13,318 nt of DNA from Leptospiraceae bacterium (GTDB lineage: Bacteria > Spirochaetota > Leptospiria > Leptospirales > Leptospiraceae): assembly GCA_018057905.1 (NCBI GenBank), contig JAGPCV010000036.1, positions 1-13,318 on the forward strand, given 5' to 3'. Position numbers and translations under genes: made by a program. Below, in pieces: positions 1 to 8,530 of this stretch (position 1 is its first letter; the number at the start of each line of letters is the position of its first letter). The notes beneath the pieces are model-generated. The model did not search any database, was not told where the DNA came from, and was given only the letters and a program-made list of their open reading frames with translations.

Positions 1-50
1 AATTTGACTATTTAAAGCCCATTATCAAAAATCCAAAAGGACAGGAGATT

Positions 51-3000
51 TTGACAGATGCAATGCAGACTCGCTCCGAGTTTATCAAAGCGCAAGACTC
101 TTTTATTTCCGCAATCGAAAGGGATGATAAAGACGAAGCTTACAATATATTAATCAAAGACTTCCGTCCTATTCAATTAAAATACATCGGTCACTTAGAC
201 AAGCTATTAGAATTTCAAGCCACCTTTGCTCAAAATGAAGCAAACCTGTCTGTAGGAAATATAATCGAAGTTACCAATAGAATAACATGGATTTCTATTC
301 TATTTGGAATACTCGTAGCTTATCTTGGTTATACAATCGTAACCTCCATTCTCAATTCCCTCCACAACTTGGAAAAAAATGTCAATGAAATCGGGAAAGA
401 AGGTAACTTTGACACAAGAATAGAAACCGATTCTACAGATGAAATCGGAATATTTGCCTTAAGCTTTAAAGAGATGATGAAAGGTATGAAGGACATGCTC
501 GCAGATGCCAACATGCTTTCCCGCGCTGCCGTTGAAGGAAGACTTGCAACTAGAGCAGACGCATCTAAATACAAAGGTGATATGCGTAAGATTGTAGAAG
601 GGGTTAATCAGACATTAGACGCTGTCATTGGTCCTCTTAACGTTGCTGCTGATTATGTTGATAAAATCTCTCGTGGGGCTATTCCTGCAAAAATTTCCGA
701 CACTTACAACGGAGACTTTAACACAATCAAGAACAACTTGAACAATGCTATTGATAATGTAAACGCACTTGTGGCTGATGCCAGTATGCTTGCGAAAGCA
801 GCAGTAGAAGGTAAACTTGCAACTCGCGCTGATGCTACTAAACACCAAGGTGACTATCGTAAGATTGTAGAAGGGGTTAACCAGACATTAGACTCTGTAA
901 TCAATCCTCTCAATGTTGCGGCTGATTATGTTGATAAAATCTCCCGTGGTGCTATCCCTGCTAAGATTTCCGATACATACAACGGGGACTTCAATGTCAT
1001 CAAGAACAATTTAAACAATGCTATTGATAATGTGAACGCTCTTGTGGCTGACGCCGGTATGCTTGCGAAAGCGGCTATTGAAGGGAAACTCGCAACCCGT
1101 GCCGATGCAACCAAGCACCAAGGCGACTATCGTAAGATTGTAGAAGGGGTTAACCAGACGTTAGACTCTGTGATTGGTCCTCTCAATGTTGCTGCTGATT
1201 ATGTTGATAAAATCTCACGCGGTGCTATTCCCGCTAAGATTTCCGACACTTACAACGGTGACTTCAATGTTATCAAGAACAACTTAAACAACGCGATTGA
1301 TAATGTGAACGCTCTTGTGGCTGATGCTGGTATGCTTGCGAAAGCGGCTATTGAAGGGAAATTGGCAACCCGTGCGGATGCAACCAAACACCAGGGCGAC
1401 TATCGTAAGATCGTGGAAGGGGTTAATCAGACGTTAGACTCTGTAATCAATCCTCTTAACGTTGCCGCTGATTACGTTGATAAAATTTCCCGTGGAGCAA
1501 TCCCTGCAAAGATTACTGACACTTACAACGGGGACTTTAACACAATCAAGAACAATTTAAACAACGCGATTGATAATGTAAACGCACTTGTGGCTGATGC
1601 TGGAATGCTCGCGAAAGCGGCTATTGAAGGTAAGCTCGCAACCCGTGCGGATGCAACCAAACACCAGGGTGACTATCGTAAGATCGTGGAAGGGGTTAAT
1701 CAGACGTTAGACTCTGTTATCAATCCTCTTAACGTAGCTGCTGATTATGTAGATAAAATCTCACGCGGTGCTATTCCATTGAAGATTACTGATACATACA
1801 ACGGTGACTTCAATGTTCTAAAGAATAACTTGAACAACGCAATTGATAATGTAAACGCACTTGTGGCTGACGCTGGAATGCTTGCGAAAGCGGCTATTGA
1901 AGGTAAGCTTGCAACACGTGCTGATGCAACCAAACACCAGGGAGACTATCGTAAGATCGTGGAAGGGGTTAATCAGACGTTAGACTCTGTGATTGGTCCT
2001 CTCAATGTTGCGGCAGATTATGTAGATAAAATCTCTCGCGGGGCAATTCCAAATCAAATTACTGATACTTACAATGGGGATTTCAATACTCTCAAGAACA
2101 ATCTCAATCGTTGTATTGAAAACGTAAATGCACTTGTGGCTGACGCCGGTATGCTTGCGAAAGCGGCTATTGACGGTAAGCTTGCAACACGTGCCGATGC
2201 AACTAAACACCAAGGAGATTTCCGTAAGATTGTAGATGGGGTTAACAACACATTAGACGCTGTGATTCTTCCAGTTCAGGAAGCTTCTTCTGTATTACTT
2301 GAACTCTCTAAAGGTAATTTAAAAGCTAGAATGCTCGGTGATTACAAAGGAGATCATGCTACTATTAAGACAGCTCTTAATACAAGCCTTGTAACTTTAA
2401 ATGACTATGTGGGGGAAATCTCGCGTATCCTATCTTCCATGTCTGCCGGAGACTTATCAGTTGATGTAACAAAAGACTTCATGGGAGACTTTGCTGAAAT
2501 TAAAAAAGCGTTAACTCTCATCGTTGATTCCTTTAATGAACTCATTGGAGAAATCATCAACGCTTCGGATCAAATCCTCATTAGCTCAAGACAAGTCGCT
2601 GACTCAAGTCAATCTCTCTCGCAAGGATCGAACGAGCAAGCTAGTAGTGTTGAAGAGATTACCGCTACGTTAGCCGTCATAGAGCTCAAGGCTAAGGATA
2701 ATGCGAAGAATGCGAAGGACGCAAGTGATCAGGCTATGAACGTGAAAGATCAGGCTGTTTCTAGTAACAACGAAATGAAAGGTATGCTCAAAGCAATGGA
2801 AGAAATCAGCGAAACATCTGAAAATATTGCTAAGATCATCAAAGAAATTGATGCTATCGCATTCCAGACAAACATACTCGCGTTAAACGCCGCTGTAGAA
2901 GCTGCCCGTGCGGGACAACATGGTAAAGGATTTAACGTGGTCGCAGAAGAGGTTCGTAACCTTGCTTCTCGTAGTGCGAACGCAGCGAAAGAAACTACCA

Positions 3001-3368
3001 AGATGATTGAAGGATCTATCAAAACAGTTCGCTCTGGTATGGACATTGCGGGAAGAACTGCAAACGAATTGAATAAGATGACAGCTGGTGTTGTAGATGT
3101 TACAGATCTCGTGAAAGACATTGCGAGTGCATCGATTGAGCAGTCTTCGTCGGTAGTAGAGACTACAACCGGTATCAATCAGATTTCACAGGTGACAATG
3201 AGTGCAGCAGCTACAGCAGAAGAAAGCTCAGCAGCTAGTCTTGAGTTGTCTAGCCAAGCAGAAGCGTTCCAGGCAATGGTGAAGAGATTTCAAATTAAGA
3301 AATCAAAAGATGACAGAAAGAGAGAGCAACAGTCATCCTCGAATAAGAAAAAAATTGATTTGAAGTAA
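51..3368 (+). CDS. Methyl-accepting chemotaxis protein with a poly-HAMP array (about 14 HAMP-like units) and a C-terminal MCP signalling domain. The 5' end is uncertain because the frame is open back to the window start.
   Basis: Translation shows one hydrophobic TM segment ([24 protein letters not shown]), then a canonical HAMP ([17 protein letters not shown]), then 91-aa tandem repeats that each split into two HAMP-like halves (…[31 protein letters not shown]… and …[30 protein letters not shown]…). The highly conserved MCP signalling core follows ([40 protein letters not shown]). Candidate starts are TTG at 51 or ATG at 63, with an AGGAG at 43-47. No stop codon lies upstream in frame within the window. 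Confidence 0.9.
501..2270 (+). repeat. Intragenic tandem repeat: six full and one partial, diverged copies of a 273-bp (91-aa) unit inside the MCP gene
   Basis: The GCT-GA(C/T)-GC(N) (Ala-Asp-Ala) unit boundary recurs at 501, 774, 1047, 1320, 1593, 1866 and 2139, an exact 273-nt period. Units 2-6 are nearly identical at protein level. Unit 1 is slightly diverged, and unit 7 diverges after about 40 codons. Confidence 0.9.
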
Positions 3369-3372
3369 GGAG
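3367..3372 (+). promoter_or_regulatory. Shine-Dalgarno (AAGGAG) for cheW, 8 nt upstream of the ATG and overlapping the mcp stop codon
   Basis: AAGGAG is read directly at 3367-3372, the ATG lies at 3381, and the mcp TAA lies at 3366-3368. Confidence 0.6.
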
Positions 3373-3380
3373 TAAAGTGT

Positions 3381-3869
3381 ATGGCAACGACATTTGAAGA
3401 AGAACAATTAGAAGAATCTGAAGATACTATGGAGGATCTCTATATCATCTTTTTCATCGATGGAAGAGAGTATGGTATAGAGATTCGTTACTTGATTGAA
3501 ATCATTGCGTTTCAACCTGTGACTTTTGTTCCAAACTTACCAGAATATGTTAAGGGAGTAATTAACCTTCGTGGGAAGATTATTCCCGTCATTGATGTGC
3601 GGCTAAGATTCGGTTTACCCAAGATAGACTATACCGAATTCACCTGCATATTGATTATGAATTTTAACAATCTAAGTGCAGGGCTTATCGTCGATGGAGT
3701 CAAAGAAGTTTTAAAAATTCCAAAAGATTGTATTGAGCCCTCACCAGGATTTGAAGAAGCAAATATGGAGCGATTCGTCGATTCCATTGGAAAGTCAGGC
3801 GATACATTGAAAATATTGATCGACCTGAATAAGTTTATTCATGAGAAAGATGTAAAAGGAATTGCTTAG
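3381..3869 (+). CDS. cheW: Chemotaxis coupling protein CheW
   Basis: 162 aa, the typical single CheW-domain size. It has CheW-like motifs (FFIDGREYGIEIRYLIEII…PNLPEYVKGVINLRGKIIPVIDVRLRFGL). It sits between the mcp and cheA. Confidence 0.9.
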   Translation: MATTFEEEQLEESEDTMEDLYIIFFIDGREYGIEIRYLIEIIAFQPVTFVPNLPEYVKGVINLRGKIIPVIDVRLRFGLPKIDYTEFTCILIMNFNNLSAGLIVDGVKEVLKIPKDCIEPSPGFEEANMERFVDSIGKSGDTLKILIDLNKFIHEKDVKGIA

Positions 3870-3877
3870 GTTCTACA

Positions 3878-5758
3878 ATGCTTGGAGAAAATGAACTTTC
3901 AGACCTTGTGCTTGATTCACAAGAGATATTGGATAAAGCAGAAGCAATTCTGATCCAATTGGAAAAAAGTTTAACTGAGTCAACGGTTGACGCAGATAAG
4001 GTAAATTCATTATTCCGCTATTTCCATACACTCAAAGGAAATGCGGGATTTTTCAATTTCAATGTGATAGTAAACCTATCGCATTCAGCAGAATCATTAT
4101 TAGAGATTGTAAGAAATGACAATTCTCTTCTTGATCAAAAAATGATTCAGCTCTTCATGGAAGCAAGAGATACTCTATACGAAATATTCACAAATTTAAA
4201 CGAAAACAAAACAGATACAATGTATAAAGAGAAGGCGGATACTTTAATTCCCCGACTCTTCTATATAAAAGAAAATCTAAAAGCAGAGTCTTCAGAGCCA
4301 AAGAAAGAAGAGCCTAGGTTTGGAATCTTCAAAAAGAAAATTGTGCTTTCTGATACTCCAATAACAGAAGAGGATAATAAGGAGTTGCCAGTTTCGAATG
4401 AACCTGCCCCTACTCCGGAAAATTCAGAATCTGATAAGTTAGATAAACATATTACAGAGAGAGCCACGCAAGAAAATCCTGTTTTAGAAAAAAAGATTCA
4501 AAATACTATAGAGGCAAATAACGGTAATTCGAATGGACAAGCTACAGTAAAAAGAGACATTCGAATCGAAACAGAGAAATTAGATTACCTACTAGACATG
4601 ATTGGTGAGCTAGTGATAGCTGAATCTCTTGTAACTCAAAATCCAGACATCAAAGAACTAGATCTTCCGAACTTTTCTATTCAATCTTCCTATTTACGTA
4701 AAGTAGTCCGTAATCTACAAGAAGTATCCTTGCAGCTAAGGATGATTACCCTCGAAGGTTTGTTTAATAAAATGGAACGACTTGTTCGAGACTTAGCACA
4801 AAAAACAGGAAAGAAAGTGGGTCTTCAAGTTACGGGAAAAGAAACAGAAATTGATAAGAATGCCCTTGAAATATTAACAGATCCACTAGTTCATATTATC
4901 CGCAACTGTATCGATCATGGATTGGAAACAGGCAAAGAGAGATTAGCTAAAGGCAAAGTAGAATCCGGTCATATCAAGATTGAAGCAATGCATTCAGGAA
5001 ATGAAGTATGGATTATTATTTCTGATGATGGTGCAGGCTTAGATAGAGATAGAATTTTGAAAAAAGCAATGGCTCGCGGATTAATCAAAGAAGGAGAAGA
5101 CGAAAATCTAAAAGACGAAAGAATTTGGGATTTTATTTTTCAACCTGGATTCTCGACTAGTGATAGAGTAACTGATATTTCAGGACGCGGAGTAGGACTT
5201 GATATAGTTCGCAGAAATATAGCAAAGATCAACGGCGATGTTGAAATCAAGACGAAAAAAGACCAGGGAGCATCGTTCATTCTAAAGCTACCTCTTACAA
5301 TTGCTATCATTGAAGGTATGGTGGTAATCTACAACGGGGTATTCTATATTATCCCCACAATAGACGTAAAAGAAACACTGAATTTGGCAGAATCGAAAAT
5401 CGACTATATCGATCAGGACAAAAAAGTAATTCGCTTCCGAGAGCAGCTAATACCCGTTGTCTCCGTAGAGAGATTACTCAATCACGATTCAAGTGACAAG
5501 GACTCTAACTACGAAAATTCTTTATATGTAATTATTGTGGAGTATAAGAATAATTCGCTAGCCCTAGTATTTGATGGAATTGTAGGAAATCAATCGGTTG
5601 TAATTAAACCAATTCCAGATTATTTAAAAGGAACAAAGGGCTTTTCAGGTTGCACAATCCTGGGAAGTGGGAATATTGGAATGATTCTAGACATTAGATT
5701 CTTTATTAATAATTACTACAAGGAAAACAAAGAATCCGAAGCAGCACATGGACAATAA
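3878..5758 (+). CDS. cheA: Chemotaxis histidine kinase CheA with P1/HPt, P3, P4/HATPase and P5/CheW-like domains and no recognisable P2
   Basis: HPt motif with the phospho-His (FRYFHTLKGNAGFF). Dimerisation region (IRIETEKLDYLLDMIGELVIAESLV). GHKL N-box (HIIRNCIDHGLE), DDGAGLD, and a G-box (GRGVGLDIV). C-terminal CheW-like domain (IIEGMVVIYNGVFYIIPTIDV…). A roughly 90-aa low-complexity acidic/Pro-rich linker between P1 and P3 replaces a recognisable P2. Confidence 0.9.
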   Translation: MLGENELSDLVLDSQEILDKAEAILIQLEKSLTESTVDADKVNSLFRYFHTLKGNAGFFNFNVIVNLSHSAESLLEIVRNDNSLLDQKMIQLFMEARDTLYEIFTNLNENKTDTMYKEKADTLIPRLFYIKENLKAESSEPKKEEPRFGIFKKKIVLSDTPITEEDNKELPVSNEPAPTPENSESDKLDKHITERATQENPVLEKKIQNTIEANNGNSNGQATVKRDIRIETEKLDYLLDMIGELVIAESLVTQNPDIKELDLPNFSIQSSYLRKVVRNLQEVSLQLRMITLEGLFNKMERLVRDLAQKTGKKVGLQVTGKETEIDKNALEILTDPLVHIIRNCIDHGLETGKERLAKGKVESGHIKIEAMHSGNEVWIIISDDGAGLDRDRILKKAMARGLIKEGEDENLKDERIWDFIFQPGFSTSDRVTDISGRGVGLDIVRRNIAKINGDVEIKTKKDQGASFILKLPLTIAIIEGMVVIYNGVFYIIPTIDVKETLNLAESKIDYIDQDKKVIRFREQLIPVVSVERLLNHDSSDKDSNYENSLYVIIVEYKNNSLALVFDGIVGNQSVVIKPIPDYLKGTKGFSGCTILGSGNIGMILDIRFFINNYYKENKESEAAHGQ

Positions 5759-6827
5759 CAAAAAAATTAAAGTATTTATTGTGGACGACCAAAGAGTCGT
5801 TCGAAATGTTATTCGAAAAATGATAACGACCGATCCGCGCATTGAAGTGGTAGGAGAAGCTTCAAATCCTTTTGAAGCAAGCGAGCTGATTCCAGAAAAA
5901 GAGCCCGATGTTTTAACTCTAGATGTAGAAATGCCTCGCATGGATGGAGTGGAATTTTTGCGAAAGCTTATGCCTCAGTATCCAATCCCTGTGATCATGG
6001 TCAGTAGCACAACTGAGGAAGGTTCAGAGAAAGCAATTTTAGCAATGCAATATGGTGCAGTTGACTTTGTCACAAAGCCAGATGGTGGAGCGATTACTCT
6101 CGAATCAACGCAAGCAGAATTAATTCAAAAGATTAAAACAGCATCTACGATCAATATTGATAGATGGCTCAAGCAATTAAAATATAAATCCATGCCACTC
6201 ATGAATAATCCTATGGCAGGTAAAAATGGAAAGAGTAAATACAATCTTATTGCTATTGGTGCATCAACTGGTGGAGTGACTGCAATACGTCAGGTGCTAT
6301 CTACAGTGCCTAGAGATTTTCCATGCATTGTGATTACTCAGCATATGCCGCCAGGATTTACGGCTACTTTTTCAAAGGGAGTTTCTAAAGATTTCGGACT
6401 TGATGTGCGAGAAGCAAAAGATCAAGATATAATTCAGACAGGAAGAATTTACGTTGCACCGGGAGACTTTCATTTAGTGGTAAATAAAAGAAATGGAATT
6501 AATCACACGGTTGGCTTAAATCGTGCCGAGAAAGTTAACGGACATAGACCATCTGTGGATGTTCTATTTCATTCCATTGTTGATAATAAACTTGCCAGTG
6601 AGACAATTGGCGTTATTTTGACAGGCATGGGAATGGACGGAGCAAAAGGGTTACTAGCAATGCGAGAAGCTGGATCGAGAACCATTGGCGAAAGTGAACA
6701 GTCGGCACTCATATACGGAATGCCGAAAGTTGCTTACGAAATCGGCGGTGTGGAAGAGCAACTTCCCCTTTCTCAAATGGTGAATAAGATAAAAAATTAT
6801 TTAAACTACTCGGGCCAATATGTCTGA
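5748..6827 (+). CDS. cheB: Protein-glutamate methylesterase CheB (N-terminal receiver plus C-terminal methylesterase)
   Basis: Receiver motifs (KVFIVDDQRVVRNVI…DVLTLDVEMPRMDG…VIMVSS…VDFVTKP). Methylesterase motifs (IAIGASTGGVTAIRQVL…CIVITQHMPPGFTATFSK…GMGMDGAKG). The start overlaps the cheA stop by 11 nt. Confidence 0.9.
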   Translation: MDNNKKIKVFIVDDQRVVRNVIRKMITTDPRIEVVGEASNPFEASELIPEKEPDVLTLDVEMPRMDGVEFLRKLMPQYPIPVIMVSSTTEEGSEKAILAMQYGAVDFVTKPDGGAITLESTQAELIQKIKTASTINIDRWLKQLKYKSMPLMNNPMAGKNGKSKYNLIAIGASTGGVTAIRQVLSTVPRDFPCIVITQHMPPGFTATFSKGVSKDFGLDVREAKDQDIIQTGRIYVAPGDFHLVVNKRNGINHTVGLNRAEKVNGHRPSVDVLFHSIVDNKLASETIGVILTGMGMDGAKGLLAMREAGSRTIGESEQSALIYGMPKVAYEIGGVEEQLPLSQMVNKIKNYLNYSGQYV

Positions 6828-8067
6828 TAAAATATTACTCTATACTCAAAACAAAGAAATAACAGAGCAGGTGAAAACCTACGTTGATGATCTTACTTAC
6901 GCTTTCAACGTAGCGGATAATATGGATAATCTCACAAGTTATCTTAAATCAGATGACACATGGCTACTCGTTTATGATTTTCTTGACACGAGTAGCGAAA
7001 ATCAAAAAAATCTTGGAAATATTCTTTCCGAATATCCATTTCAATTGGTTATTCTATTAATCAATCGAGAGGAAGGAGACAAGTTTCTACAAATGATGGA
7101 AAACTATCATGTGTATGATATTATCTCCTACCCAATTTATAAATTCAATTTTCATTTTGCGATAACAAAGGCTATCACCTACGGAAAGGTGATGTCCAAG
7201 ATTTCTGATTTTAAATCAAACGAGAAACAAGTTTTCGAATCCATGATTAAAGTATTTGATTGGAGAAAAGAACTTGATACTAGAAAAGTCGAATCTCTTG
7301 CAAATGAATTAATACACCAAATCAATATTAGCTTCTTCCATGGAAGTGGTCTCGGATCACTTATTAGCACACTGAGTATTTTATTTTCAAAAGCTAAATT
7401 AGATGAAGAGAAAAAAGTTTACTTAGTTCATGAAAAAATTTATCACCTATTAAAAGACAACTACGACGAAATTCTAAAACTAAGTGATAGTTTAACTAAA
7501 ACACAAGCCATATTAGCGGAAAAGGATTTTTATATAGGGAAATTAACCCTGAAAGATTTCTATGCTGCATTAACCGAAATGGTAAAAGGTATGAAACCAG
7601 TTGCTGGAATTAAAAATCAGAAGATAGTTATGGGTGATTTTCCAAGAGACCTAGCCGGAAGATCAATTACTGCCAGCCCAGAAAATTTGAAGCTAGTCTT
7701 TGATGAATTATTAACAAATGCAATTAAATACTCGGAAGATGGAGATACAATCTATATTCTATTTTCACATGATAAAACGGATTTTGGAATCAGAATCCTG
7801 AATCCCGCCTACAAGAATTCAGACGGAACAGTGGGGATAACGGAGAGTAATGCGCATAAAATCTTTGAACCATTTTTTCGATTGACTAATGTTGTAGATG
7901 ATAGATTCATGCAGGAAACATTTCGATTTGGTCTGGGTTTGACAGTTGTAAATAAAATTATTGATTTACACAAAGGGAGTATTTCGTTTTATACAACAGA
8001 CAATAATATGAGACGAGAAAACAATATGAAAGATGTATGCGTTTGGGTTCGATTTCCAATTTTATAA
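6820..8067 (+). CDS. Atypical signalling protein: degenerate (pseudo-)receiver N-domain, a roughly 150-aa middle region of unclear type, and a C-terminal histidine-kinase-like (GHKL) ATPase domain
   Basis: The N-terminal 120 aa have receiver-like beta/alpha periodicity (KILLYTQN…WLLVYDFLDTSS…QLVILLINRE…YDIISYP). They lack the acidic DD pair and the conserved Lys. The C-terminus has an N-box (LVFDELLTNAIKYS), a G1-like box (HDKTDFGI), an F-box (FEPFFR) and a G2 box (RFGLGLTVV). No canonical H-box was seen; the nearest is ELIHQINISF. It overlaps the cheB stop by 8 nt (ATGTCTGA), so it is translationally coupled. Confidence 0.6.
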   Translation: MSDKILLYTQNKEITEQVKTYVDDLTYAFNVADNMDNLTSYLKSDDTWLLVYDFLDTSSENQKNLGNILSEYPFQLVILLINREEGDKFLQMMENYHVYDIISYPIYKFNFHFAITKAITYGKVMSKISDFKSNEKQVFESMIKVFDWRKELDTRKVESLANELIHQINISFFHGSGLGSLISTLSILFSKAKLDEEKKVYLVHEKIYHLLKDNYDEILKLSDSLTKTQAILAEKDFYIGKLTLKDFYAALTEMVKGMKPVAGIKNQKIVMGDFPRDLAGRSITASPENLKLVFDELLTNAIKYSEDGDTIYILFSHDKTDFGIRILNPAYKNSDGTVGITESNAHKIFEPFFRLTNVVDDRFMQETFRFGLGLTVVNKIIDLHKGSISFYTTDNNMRRENNMKDVCVWVRFPIL

Positions 8068-8075
8068 AAAAGGCA

Positions 8076-8081
8076 AGGAAG
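8076..8081 (+). promoter_or_regulatory. Shine-Dalgarno-like AGGAAG, 4 nt upstream of the cheY ATG
   Basis: Read directly at 8076-8081. The ATG lies at 8086. Confidence 0.45.
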
Positions 8082-8085
8082 TATT

Positions 8086-8445
8086 ATGAAAAAAGTTCTT
8101 ATAGTTGATGATTCTCCAATGGTTTTGAATATAATTGAGACTGCCCTAAGCCTCGAAGATTATGATGTAGTTAGAGCGTCTAATGCCGATGAGGCGCTAA
8201 AAAAAATTGAAGAAGGAAAATTCGATTTTGGAATATTCGACGTAAATATGCCTGGCAAGACTGGAATCGAACTTGTCCCACTAGTTTTAAATCATCCCAA
8301 CGGCAAATCAATGAAGATTGTAATTTTGACCACCGAGTCTAGTGCTGAGATTCGTAAAAAAGGAGAAGACGCAGGAGCATCTGCCTGGATGGTAAAACCA
8401 TTTAAAAATGCTGAAATGATTGACCTGCTAAAACAATTAGAGTAG
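8086..8445 (+). CDS. cheY: Single-domain response regulator of CheY type
   Basis: 119 aa. All receiver signature residues are present: DD (KVLIVDDSP), phospho-Asp (GIFDVNMPG), Thr (VILTTES) and Lys (WMVKPF). It is the last gene of the che cluster. Confidence 0.85.
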   Translation: MKKVLIVDDSPMVLNIIETALSLEDYDVVRASNADEALKKIEEGKFDFGIFDVNMPGKTGIELVPLVLNHPNGKSMKIVILTTESSAEIRKKGEDAGASAWMVKPFKNAEMIDLLKQLE

Positions 8446-8530
8446 TCACTCAAAGTAAAAAATAAAACGAATATTTTTCTACTTGCTTGTTCTATTATTC
8501 AAATTAAGATTTGCAGAATAAACTATTAGC

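Follow-up and report, generated by a model that had tools for sequence, protein, structure and literature searches.

Silent divergence and protein identity among tandem HAMP modules in a chemoreceptor gene of a Leptospiraceae bacterium

How can neighbouring copies of a tandem repeat stay nearly identical in protein while their DNA drifts apart? This question is raised by a 13,318-nucleotide stretch of DNA (hereafter the window) from a metagenome-assembled genome (MAG) of a Leptospiraceae bacterium (GenBank assembly GCA_018057905.1, contig JAGPCV010000036.1, positions 1 to 13,318, forward strand), in which the gene of a methyl-accepting chemotaxis protein (MCP) carries six full 273-bp units and a degenerate seventh. 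An original prediction, made from the letters of the window, had taken the repeats to be old and each of them to be constrained. Here, we compared the array with orthologous loci of relatives, designated L081/L082, L083/L089, L084/L085, L086/L091 and L087/L088, and with more distant arrays. We consider it likely that the array evolves by birth and death of whole, interchangeable modules, each a pair of HAMP domains (di-HAMP), under strong and uniform purifying selection.

The MCP gene (3-3368, plus strand; its 5' end is cut by the contig edge) was assigned from its open reading frame (ORF), its Pfam domains and a 100% match of its translation to P0006, a partial MCP of 1121 amino acids filed at NCBI under 'MAG: Leptospiraceae bacterium'. 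Pfam recognises one HAMP, HAMP_2 (PF18947) in eight stretches (E = 4e-219) and MCPsignal. Tandem Repeats Finder reports one array at 532-2267 with a period of 273, 6.4 copies, 86% matches and 0% indels. In the register of the original prediction the units start at 501, 774, 1047, 1320, 1593 and 1866, with the degenerate seventh from 2139, and all of them lie in frame of the long plus-strand ORF ending at 3368. They are directly concatenated: matches to a hidden Markov model (HMM) of the unit abut with gap 0, so unit length is constant and there is no linker. Unit 1 (501-773) is the most divergent full unit, with a KYKGDM motif and 84% nucleotide identity to unit 1 of L084. The interior units 2 (774-1046), 3 (1047-1319, with Pfam HAMP_2 over unit residues 23-89), 4 (1320-1592) and 5 (1593-1865) follow the 273-nucleotide register, and unit 6 (1866-2138), an NQ...RC..E variant, is the last full unit and the positional orthologue of the last full unit in relatives. 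The degenerate seventh unit (2139-2411) is still repeat-like in its first half and a diverged HAMP in its second; it scores 98 with the unit HMM, compared to about 190 for full units, and is conserved as array terminus in all relatives. DNA identity between units is 74-88%, while the protein of the copies is 95-97% identical. Most amino-acid variation is found in units 1 and 6, with only seven positions differing among units 2-5 (4, 11, 44, 63, 66, 75 and 76). The longest exact repeat in the array measures 47 bp, and most unit pairs share no more than 35 bp.

A single 91-residue unit scores 113 bits with HAMP_2 (cut-off 24.3), and two and a third periods align to the crystal structure of the poly-HAMP segment of AskA (9trk, E = 1.4e-10). 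The motif pattern of each unit comprises two helix-connector-helix halves with glycine invariant at unit positions 13, 26, 34, 59 and 71, and a bulky aromatic residue at unit position 28 (Y, F or M) aligns with the interface tryptophan of kinase arrays. Judged by these matches, the repeat is a poly-HAMP array, probably of di-HAMP modules, in a transmembrane chemoreceptor and belongs to a known family. The paper presenting the AskA structure describes poly-HAMP arrays as tightly packed di-HAMP modules, in each of which a non-canonical HAMP is paired with a canonical one (Coles et al. 2026, PMC13446029). From a comparison of motifs with that description, residues 1-44 of unit 3 (1047-1178) would form the non-canonical and residues 45-91 (1179-1319) the canonical HAMP. 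An AlphaFold2 model of two units as a single chain had two long helices per unit, a predicted local distance difference test score of 64 and a collapse into an intramolecular four-helix bundle, and a Foldseek search of this chain against the PDB returned designed bundles and inhibitor proteins; both were uninformative and were not used. HAMP domains are obligate dimers.

Which force keeps the modules alike in protein? Between units 3 and 4 the original prediction had reported about 38 differences in 273 nucleotides, roughly 86% identity, with three replacement and about 29 synonymous codons. We counted 37 differences (86.4% identity) and exactly three and 29 such codons; 31 of the 37 differences fall on third codon positions, and the residue changes are at unit positions 44 (G>N), 66 (S>T) and 75 (V>T). 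The Nei-Gojobori method (NG86) gave a synonymous divergence (dS) of 0.80, a non-synonymous divergence (dN) of 0.029 and a ratio (omega) of 0.036, the excess of synonymous over non-synonymous changes per site being highly significant (Fisher p = 1e-17). Other estimators yielded an omega of 0.040 (LWL85), 0.097 (YN00) and 0.038 (maximum likelihood, ML). Across all 15 pairs of the six full units, dS ranged from 0.68 to 1.66 and omega from 0.025 to 0.095; pooled omega was 0.033 for interior units 2-5 (codon-bootstrap 95% confidence interval 0.011-0.063) and 0.067 for all six units. All four estimation methods place dN/dS far below 1, with YN00 (Biopython) covering nine of the 15 pairs, as five unit-1 pairs and the pair of units 2 and 3 returned no values, and with ML dS unstable for four of the five pairs involving unit 1.

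The same gene provides a vertical yardstick. Against L081, L084 and L086 the non-repeat C-terminus of the MCP has an omega of 0.021-0.025, and the last unit against its orthologues one of 0.015, which is about the same as the horizontal omega of the interior units (0.033). Purifying selection on each unit, as originally claimed, is borne out by these values, and the further claim that the units do not stem from recent slippage agrees with a dS of 0.7-1.0 between neighbours and the short longest exact repeat. Strong purifying selection acts on each module just as on the rest of the receptor, and a special mechanism is not needed. An overlapping gene or RNA as cause of the pattern was rejected: no alternative frame longer than 90 codons is open inside the array on either strand, and no Rfam or tRNA matches were found.

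Are the units so old that their codons have been randomised? The proportion of synonymous differences (pS) among interior units is 0.45-0.56. Simulation of random codons, with the usage of either the array or the neighbouring genes, gave an expected pS of 0.79-0.82 with a first percentile of about 0.63-0.66, and arrays of distant lineages compared with each other reach 0.8-0.95. Saturation was rejected on the simulation and the between-lineage comparisons. As interior pS lies below saturation, the units are diverged, not saturated, and still carry shared DNA ancestry; at 20 of 71 degenerate invariant columns all six units use a single codon. The distance between units grows with their separation along the array (Mantel r = 0.82, third positions 0.88; exact p = 0.003), a gradient expected from stepwise duplication of neighbours and described for repeat arrays in general (Persi et al. 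2016, PMC5120217). Of the original view of old, individually constrained repeats, strong constraint and non-recent duplication stand, while ancient, individually conserved units are not supported as stated, given the unsaturated silent sites, the mixed outcome of the unit tree and the lability of the array.

This lability becomes apparent in the relatives. By flanking genes, L084 and L086 are the nearest (CheW dS 0.16, CheA dS 0.41-0.44), and their array consists of two units, an insert of about 96 residues, diverged units, three clean units and a degenerate terminus. L081 has nine full units, with 93-95% DNA identity among its units 3-5. Neighbour-joining trees with codon bootstrap place the last full units of four lineages in one positional clade (window unit 6, L084 unit 6, L081 unit 9 and L083 unit 7) with a bootstrap of 0.98 for all sites (0.98-0.99 across trees) and 0.61 for third positions only; unit 6 shares 89-90% nucleotide identity with its counterparts in L084 and L081 (dS 0.59-0.66). 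Unit 1 of the window groups with the first units of L083 and L084 at a bootstrap below 50%, and the interior units find no one-to-one partner in the arrays of relatives. In two arrays of more distant relatives, L001 and L037, all units cluster with those of their own lineage (bootstrap 1.0 and 0.99). On average, units of one array differ less in pS (0.38-0.59) than units of different lineages, whichever lineages are compared; the gap is small for the nearest relatives, with 0.51 within the array and 0.55-0.57 between arrays. Clustering of unit k with unit k across species had been proposed as a mark of ancient origin, and the outcome is mixed: it holds for the last unit and weakly for the first, but neither for the interior units nor in L001 and L037. 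Since silent divergence within the array is only slightly below that to the nearest relatives, and in view of the unit tree, the interior modules arose at about the time when these Leptospiraceae lineages split, after the more distant ones had split off, and there has been gain and loss of modules since. What birth-and-death evolution predicts is thus present: omega far below 1 at substantial dS, gain and loss of units, and old units next to young ones.

A mechanistic picture can be sketched with the help of the published model. The signal would travel from the membrane-proximal HAMP through six full modules and one degenerate module, without spacer, to the kinase-control domain that couples to CheW and CheA, and the output helix of each HAMP would run directly into the input helix of the next. 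Canonical and non-canonical HAMPs are described to rotate oppositely, which makes the di-HAMP a self-contained toggle (PMC13446029); each module would then reverse helix rotation twice and pass the signal on unchanged. For a self-contained toggle, whole modules could be gained or lost in exact 273-bp steps while signal sign and helical register remain unchanged, and the lack of indels and the whole 273-bp steps would be explained by the di-HAMP being the toggle unit. Whole modules were probably duplicated moderately long ago (dS about 0.7-1.0, neighbours closest), with silent sites drifting since. Nearly every residue would sit in the bundle core or touch an adjacent module identical to its own; being part of the same bundle and flanked by identical neighbours, all interior modules would face one sequence optimum and hence stay 95-97% identical in protein. 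Edge modules would contact non-repeat partners, in keeping with sequences of their own and stable orthology. The lineage probably still gains and loses modules.

The long-kept protein identity, selection as strong as between species and the positional stability of the edges only lead us to argue that the interior modules are equivalent and exchangeable, serving as spacers or relays and not as specialised sensors. This suggests that array length is what evolution adjusts. A prediction follows: signalling should be tuned rather than broken when whole modules are added or removed.

How does the array compare with known systems? Nearest are the poly-HAMP arrays of chemoreceptors (HAMP types A and B, HAMP_2 PF18947; Dunin-Horkawicz & Lupas 2010; PMC13446029), whose linkerless head-to-tail modules, di-HAMPs as probably in the window too, lie upstream of a methyl-accepting domain as they do here. 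Their modules are nearly identical within one array and related arrays differ in module number (PMC13446029), both of which also apply to the window. A possible difference concerns glycine at the HAMP-HAMP junctions, where it is conserved in the published arrays: the putative junction positions of the window are variable, position 4 reading N, S, G, G, G, G and position 44 reading G, N, G, N, N, G across units 1-6, i.e. glycine in four and three of the six units. Another concerns history. The published account infers 'intragenic amplification' from protein identity only, without nucleotide or silent-site analysis (PMC13446029), whereas the DNA of the window shows that amplification is not recent and that identity is kept by selection. 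A literature search for silent-site analyses of HAMP repeats found nothing relevant, and the DNA-level signature is apparently an unpublished, modest refinement. In fungal group III hybrid histidine kinases (Nik1/Os-1/Bos1), the modules of an array have diverged from each other much further. Together with Myxococcus AskA (9trk, 9trj) these kinases represent the kinase-associated arrays, which resemble the window in a period of about 91-92 residues and in a module number that varies among relatives, but have a histidine kinase and not an MCP domain as output; their HAMP types (C and D) are said to have arisen independently.

Outside the HAMP world, similar dynamics are familiar from other repeats. 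Polyubiquitin and similar families reportedly evolve by birth and death under strong purifying selection, a view put forward by Nei and co-workers. As in polyubiquitin, the tandem coding units of the window are identical in protein (or nearly so) and silently diverged, their number changes and units often group by lineage. Polyubiquitin units, however, are cleaved into separate proteins, while those of the window would form one continuous coiled-coil rod; because they contact each other there, constraint includes the packing of unit against unit. Adhesin and contingency-locus repeats share in-frame tandem repetition and a copy number that differs among relatives. They are near-identical in DNA and their copy number shifts within populations, in contrast to the window with its 74-88% identity and a longest exact repeat of 47 bp; near-identical DNA repeats able to misalign, the substrate of slippage, are not found in its array.

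Several points weigh against our interpretation. Published chemoreceptor arrays are described as soluble, while the window receptor has a transmembrane helix and a membrane-proximal HAMP; this architecture (transmembrane helix plus PF00672 HAMP) is common to many database homologues, and we treated the receptor as a transmembrane variant of the family and not as grounds for exclusion. Both the toggle mechanism and the structural cause of the constraint are taken from the literature and would apply here by analogy. Silent divergence is uneven along the locus: against L084, dS is 0.16 for CheW, 0.41 for CheA and 0.63 for the 3' end (C-terminus) of the MCP, and against L081 it exceeds 2 for CheA and is 0.76 for the 3' end of the MCP. 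Beyond simple duplication and drift, the locus seems to have a mosaic history in which the 3' part of the receptor recombined or was exchanged between paralogues. Some short-tract conversion between units may have occurred as well, as marginal mosaic tracts and the 47-bp identity in units 4-6 indicate. Finally, six is the copy number of a single MAG contig and should be taken as provisional.

Could the six units instead be, as a strict form of the original view would have it, ancient and individually fixed, each with its own role and conserved separately since before the relatives diverged? The edges of the array look like it: positional orthologues of the last unit occur in four lineages (0.98), the first unit falls among other first units, the vertical omega of edge units is low, and some specialised units pair between L083 and L084. 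The interior does not, as its units lack one-to-one partners and differ at seven residues only, which shows little sign of individual specialisation. The arrays of the closest relatives differ in number and are interrupted, within-array pS stays below between-lineage pS in every comparison, and L001 and L037 group by lineage. Fixed units are, in our judgement, unlikely. Ongoing concerted evolution, in which short-tract gene conversion or unequal exchange rather than purifying selection alone keep the proteins similar, strikes us as quite unlikely. It would account for neighbouring units being more alike than distant ones (Mantel p = 0.003), for a 47-bp tract identical in three units, for the concordant runs in pairs 3-4 and 5-6 that are longer than expected (p = 0.006-0.007, uncorrected) and for the last two units of L081/L082 being 100% identical in DNA to those of the upstream paralogous receptor. 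But the tract tests fail correction for 15 pairs, and the similarity of neighbours is equally expected from stepwise duplication (PMC5120217). Conversion also homogenises silent sites, yet 67 of the 96 variable sites are third positions, neighbour dS is 0.7-1.0 and the units of the window are not homogenised in DNA (74-88% identity). Conversion cannot explain protein identity together with silent divergence.

Two further explanations concern the DNA itself. Silent divergence might be favoured in its own right if recoded units resist RecA-mediated deletion and slippage and surviving arrays are enriched for them, an idea suggested by the longest exact repeat of only 47 bp in a 1.9-kb array of near-identical protein modules and by many arrays across phyla with a similar within-array pS of 0.4-0.6. 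We regard this as very doubtful: an excess of silent change is not seen, pS being below saturation and in step with how far the non-repeat C-terminus has diverged silently from its orthologues; some arrays have units of 96-100% identical DNA (L026, L016, L043, L065), and L081 has young duplicates; and the sample was picked by similarity to the query, which biases the pS range. An assembly artefact, i.e. a short-read chimera or collapse with unit differences stemming from mixed strains or paralogous receptors, is hardly credible. True, the MAG contig ends inside the receptor gene, arrays of this kind are where many related contigs break, relatives have two or three paralogous receptors whose units closely resemble each other, and no independent assembly of the window array was found. 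On the other hand, the frame is intact over 6.4 units without an indel, a random chimera would not be expected to show similarity that falls in order with separation, and sequencing error cannot account for differences of 14%. The signature is shared by arrays of relatives that recur in independent samples at 99.8-100% identity, one of these arrays lying on a 420-kb contig, and isolate genomes show the same pattern. Birth and death of whole modules under purifying selection remains our preferred reading.

Is the pattern peculiar to this receptor? We surveyed about 80 loci spanning many lineages of bacteria and archaea; as they had been selected for their resemblance to the query, the range of pS is biased. 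Their arrays form a continuum from units of 96-100% identical DNA (L026, L016, L043, L065) to units of 45-55% protein identity. Many have at least 90% protein identity at a pS of 0.4-0.56 and an omega of 0.04-0.13 (e.g. L015, L067, L037, L001, L008), and omega is equally low in isolate genomes (Methylomonas, Methanolobus), whose units are somewhat less alike in protein. The window array sits at the well-conserved end of a common pattern, of which arrays of 96-100% identical units are the young end. Purifying selection (dN/dS < 1) is known among protein tandem repeats, but repeats within one protein are reported to diverge markedly faster than orthologous repeats do (Persi et al. 2016, PMC5120217). 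The original statement that most intragenic tandem repeats show the opposite pattern is in line with that study; within the poly-HAMP family the protein-conserved, silently diverged pattern is common and not exceptional. Unlike the general trend, horizontal and vertical dN/dS are about equal in the window (0.033 vs 0.015-0.025). Tentatively, and with more doubt than confidence, we raise the possibility that poly-HAMP arrays are a systematic exception to the faster divergence of repeats within a protein, their near-identity being maintained by selection over a dS of about 0.5-1 and not a sign of recent amplification. If so, the array must act as one transmission rod that is built of interchangeable modules and tuned through its length, and loss of DNA identity may be what lets long arrays persist. 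What long poly-HAMP arrays do is regarded as an open question (Coles et al. 2026, PMC13446029). The signature is real but largely ordinary for the family and does not define a new kind of system.

Some observations on the array and its assembly stand apart from this argument. The 47-bp tract is exactly identical at 1398-1444, 1671-1717 and 1944-1990 in units 4, 5 and 6 and may reflect either a short conversion event or coincidence. At unit codons 29-41 the window array shows a local rise in codon identity; a universal silent-site constraint inside the unit was rejected, the averaged profile being flat over 18 other arrays. Codon usage of the array (501-2138) deviates from that of the neighbouring genes (3381-11034), with 67% vs 15% CGT for arginine, 75% vs 23% CAG for glutamine, 35% vs 8% GGG for glycine and 75% vs 29% CCT for proline, and the GC content at third codon positions is 0.39 vs 0.29-0.35. 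This could be a founder effect of one ancestral unit or point to a foreign origin.

Neither an exact 30-mer scan of metagenome contigs nor an exact-protein lookup found a second assembly of the window array. For relatives, independent samples gave 0 differences in 4467 nucleotides (L081 vs L082), 99.9% (L083 vs L089) and 99.84% identity (L086 vs L091). The window begins inside the receptor at the contig edge (1-3), L001, L006, L013, L027, L046, L069 and L073 are related cases, and many related database contigs begin or end within or beside such arrays. Poly-HAMP genes seem to fragment short-read assemblies, and copy numbers of their units in MAGs need care.

Outside the repeats, the receptor gene has further recognisable parts, all on the plus strand. 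A 24-residue hydrophobic stretch at 282-353 is, from the sequence and its position relative to the 4HB_MCP sensor of orthologues, the putative second transmembrane helix; the N-terminal 4HB_MCP sensor, which lies upstream in the receptors of orthologues, is missing from the 5'-cut gene of the window. The membrane-proximal classical HAMP (PF00672) lies at 342-482 (Pfam, residues 98-144 of the ORF starting at 51, E = 3e-17). Downstream of the array, a weak HAMP-like segment at 2436-2546 (the eighth HAMP_2 stretch; weak unit-HMM match to model positions 55-91) links it to the MCP signalling (kinase-control) domain PF00015 at 2724-3197 (Pfam, residues 892-1049, E = 6e-44). L081 (P0004, 95% identical) was rejected as the receptor's orthologue as its N-terminal sensor is unrelated, and the true N-terminal relatives are of the P0011/P0020 types, from which domain shuffling among paralogous receptors follows. 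Relatives carry two or three tandem MCP-cheW modules, and receptor N-termini are shuffled among the paralogues. The two paralogous receptors of L081/L082 share their last two full units at 100% DNA identity. When L081/L082 is compared with L083/L089, the latter is 97.8% identical downstream, with the front two-thirds of the receptor at that position being different.

The receptor gene is followed by cheW (3381-3869), cheA (3878-5758) and cheB (5748-6827), all on the plus strand and assigned by Pfam and by synteny in L081, L083, L084, L086 and L087; the order MCP-cheW-cheA-cheB is kept in every close relative retrieved. A cheR or cheY-like gene was not recognised by Pfam among the window ORFs scanned. 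Directly after cheB, the region 6820-8445 (plus strand) encodes a histidine kinase of 415 amino acids, in which only HATPase_c is recognised, and a single-domain response regulator. A long ORF at 11302-13317 (plus strand) runs off the 3' end of the window and, not being closed, is absent from the list of ORFs. The N-terminus is of multi-pass membrane type, and the C-terminal part resembles sensor histidine kinases (TorS/BarA-like hits, E = 1e-74). Between them, just downstream of the chemotaxis cluster, an ORF at 8542-11034 (plus strand) encodes a protein of 830 amino acids with Major Vault Protein (MVP) shoulder (PF11978, E = 6e-24), Vault_3 and SPFH/Band_7 domains and without an NCBIfam match. 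A bacterial MVP-like protein adjoining a che operon may deserve separate attention.

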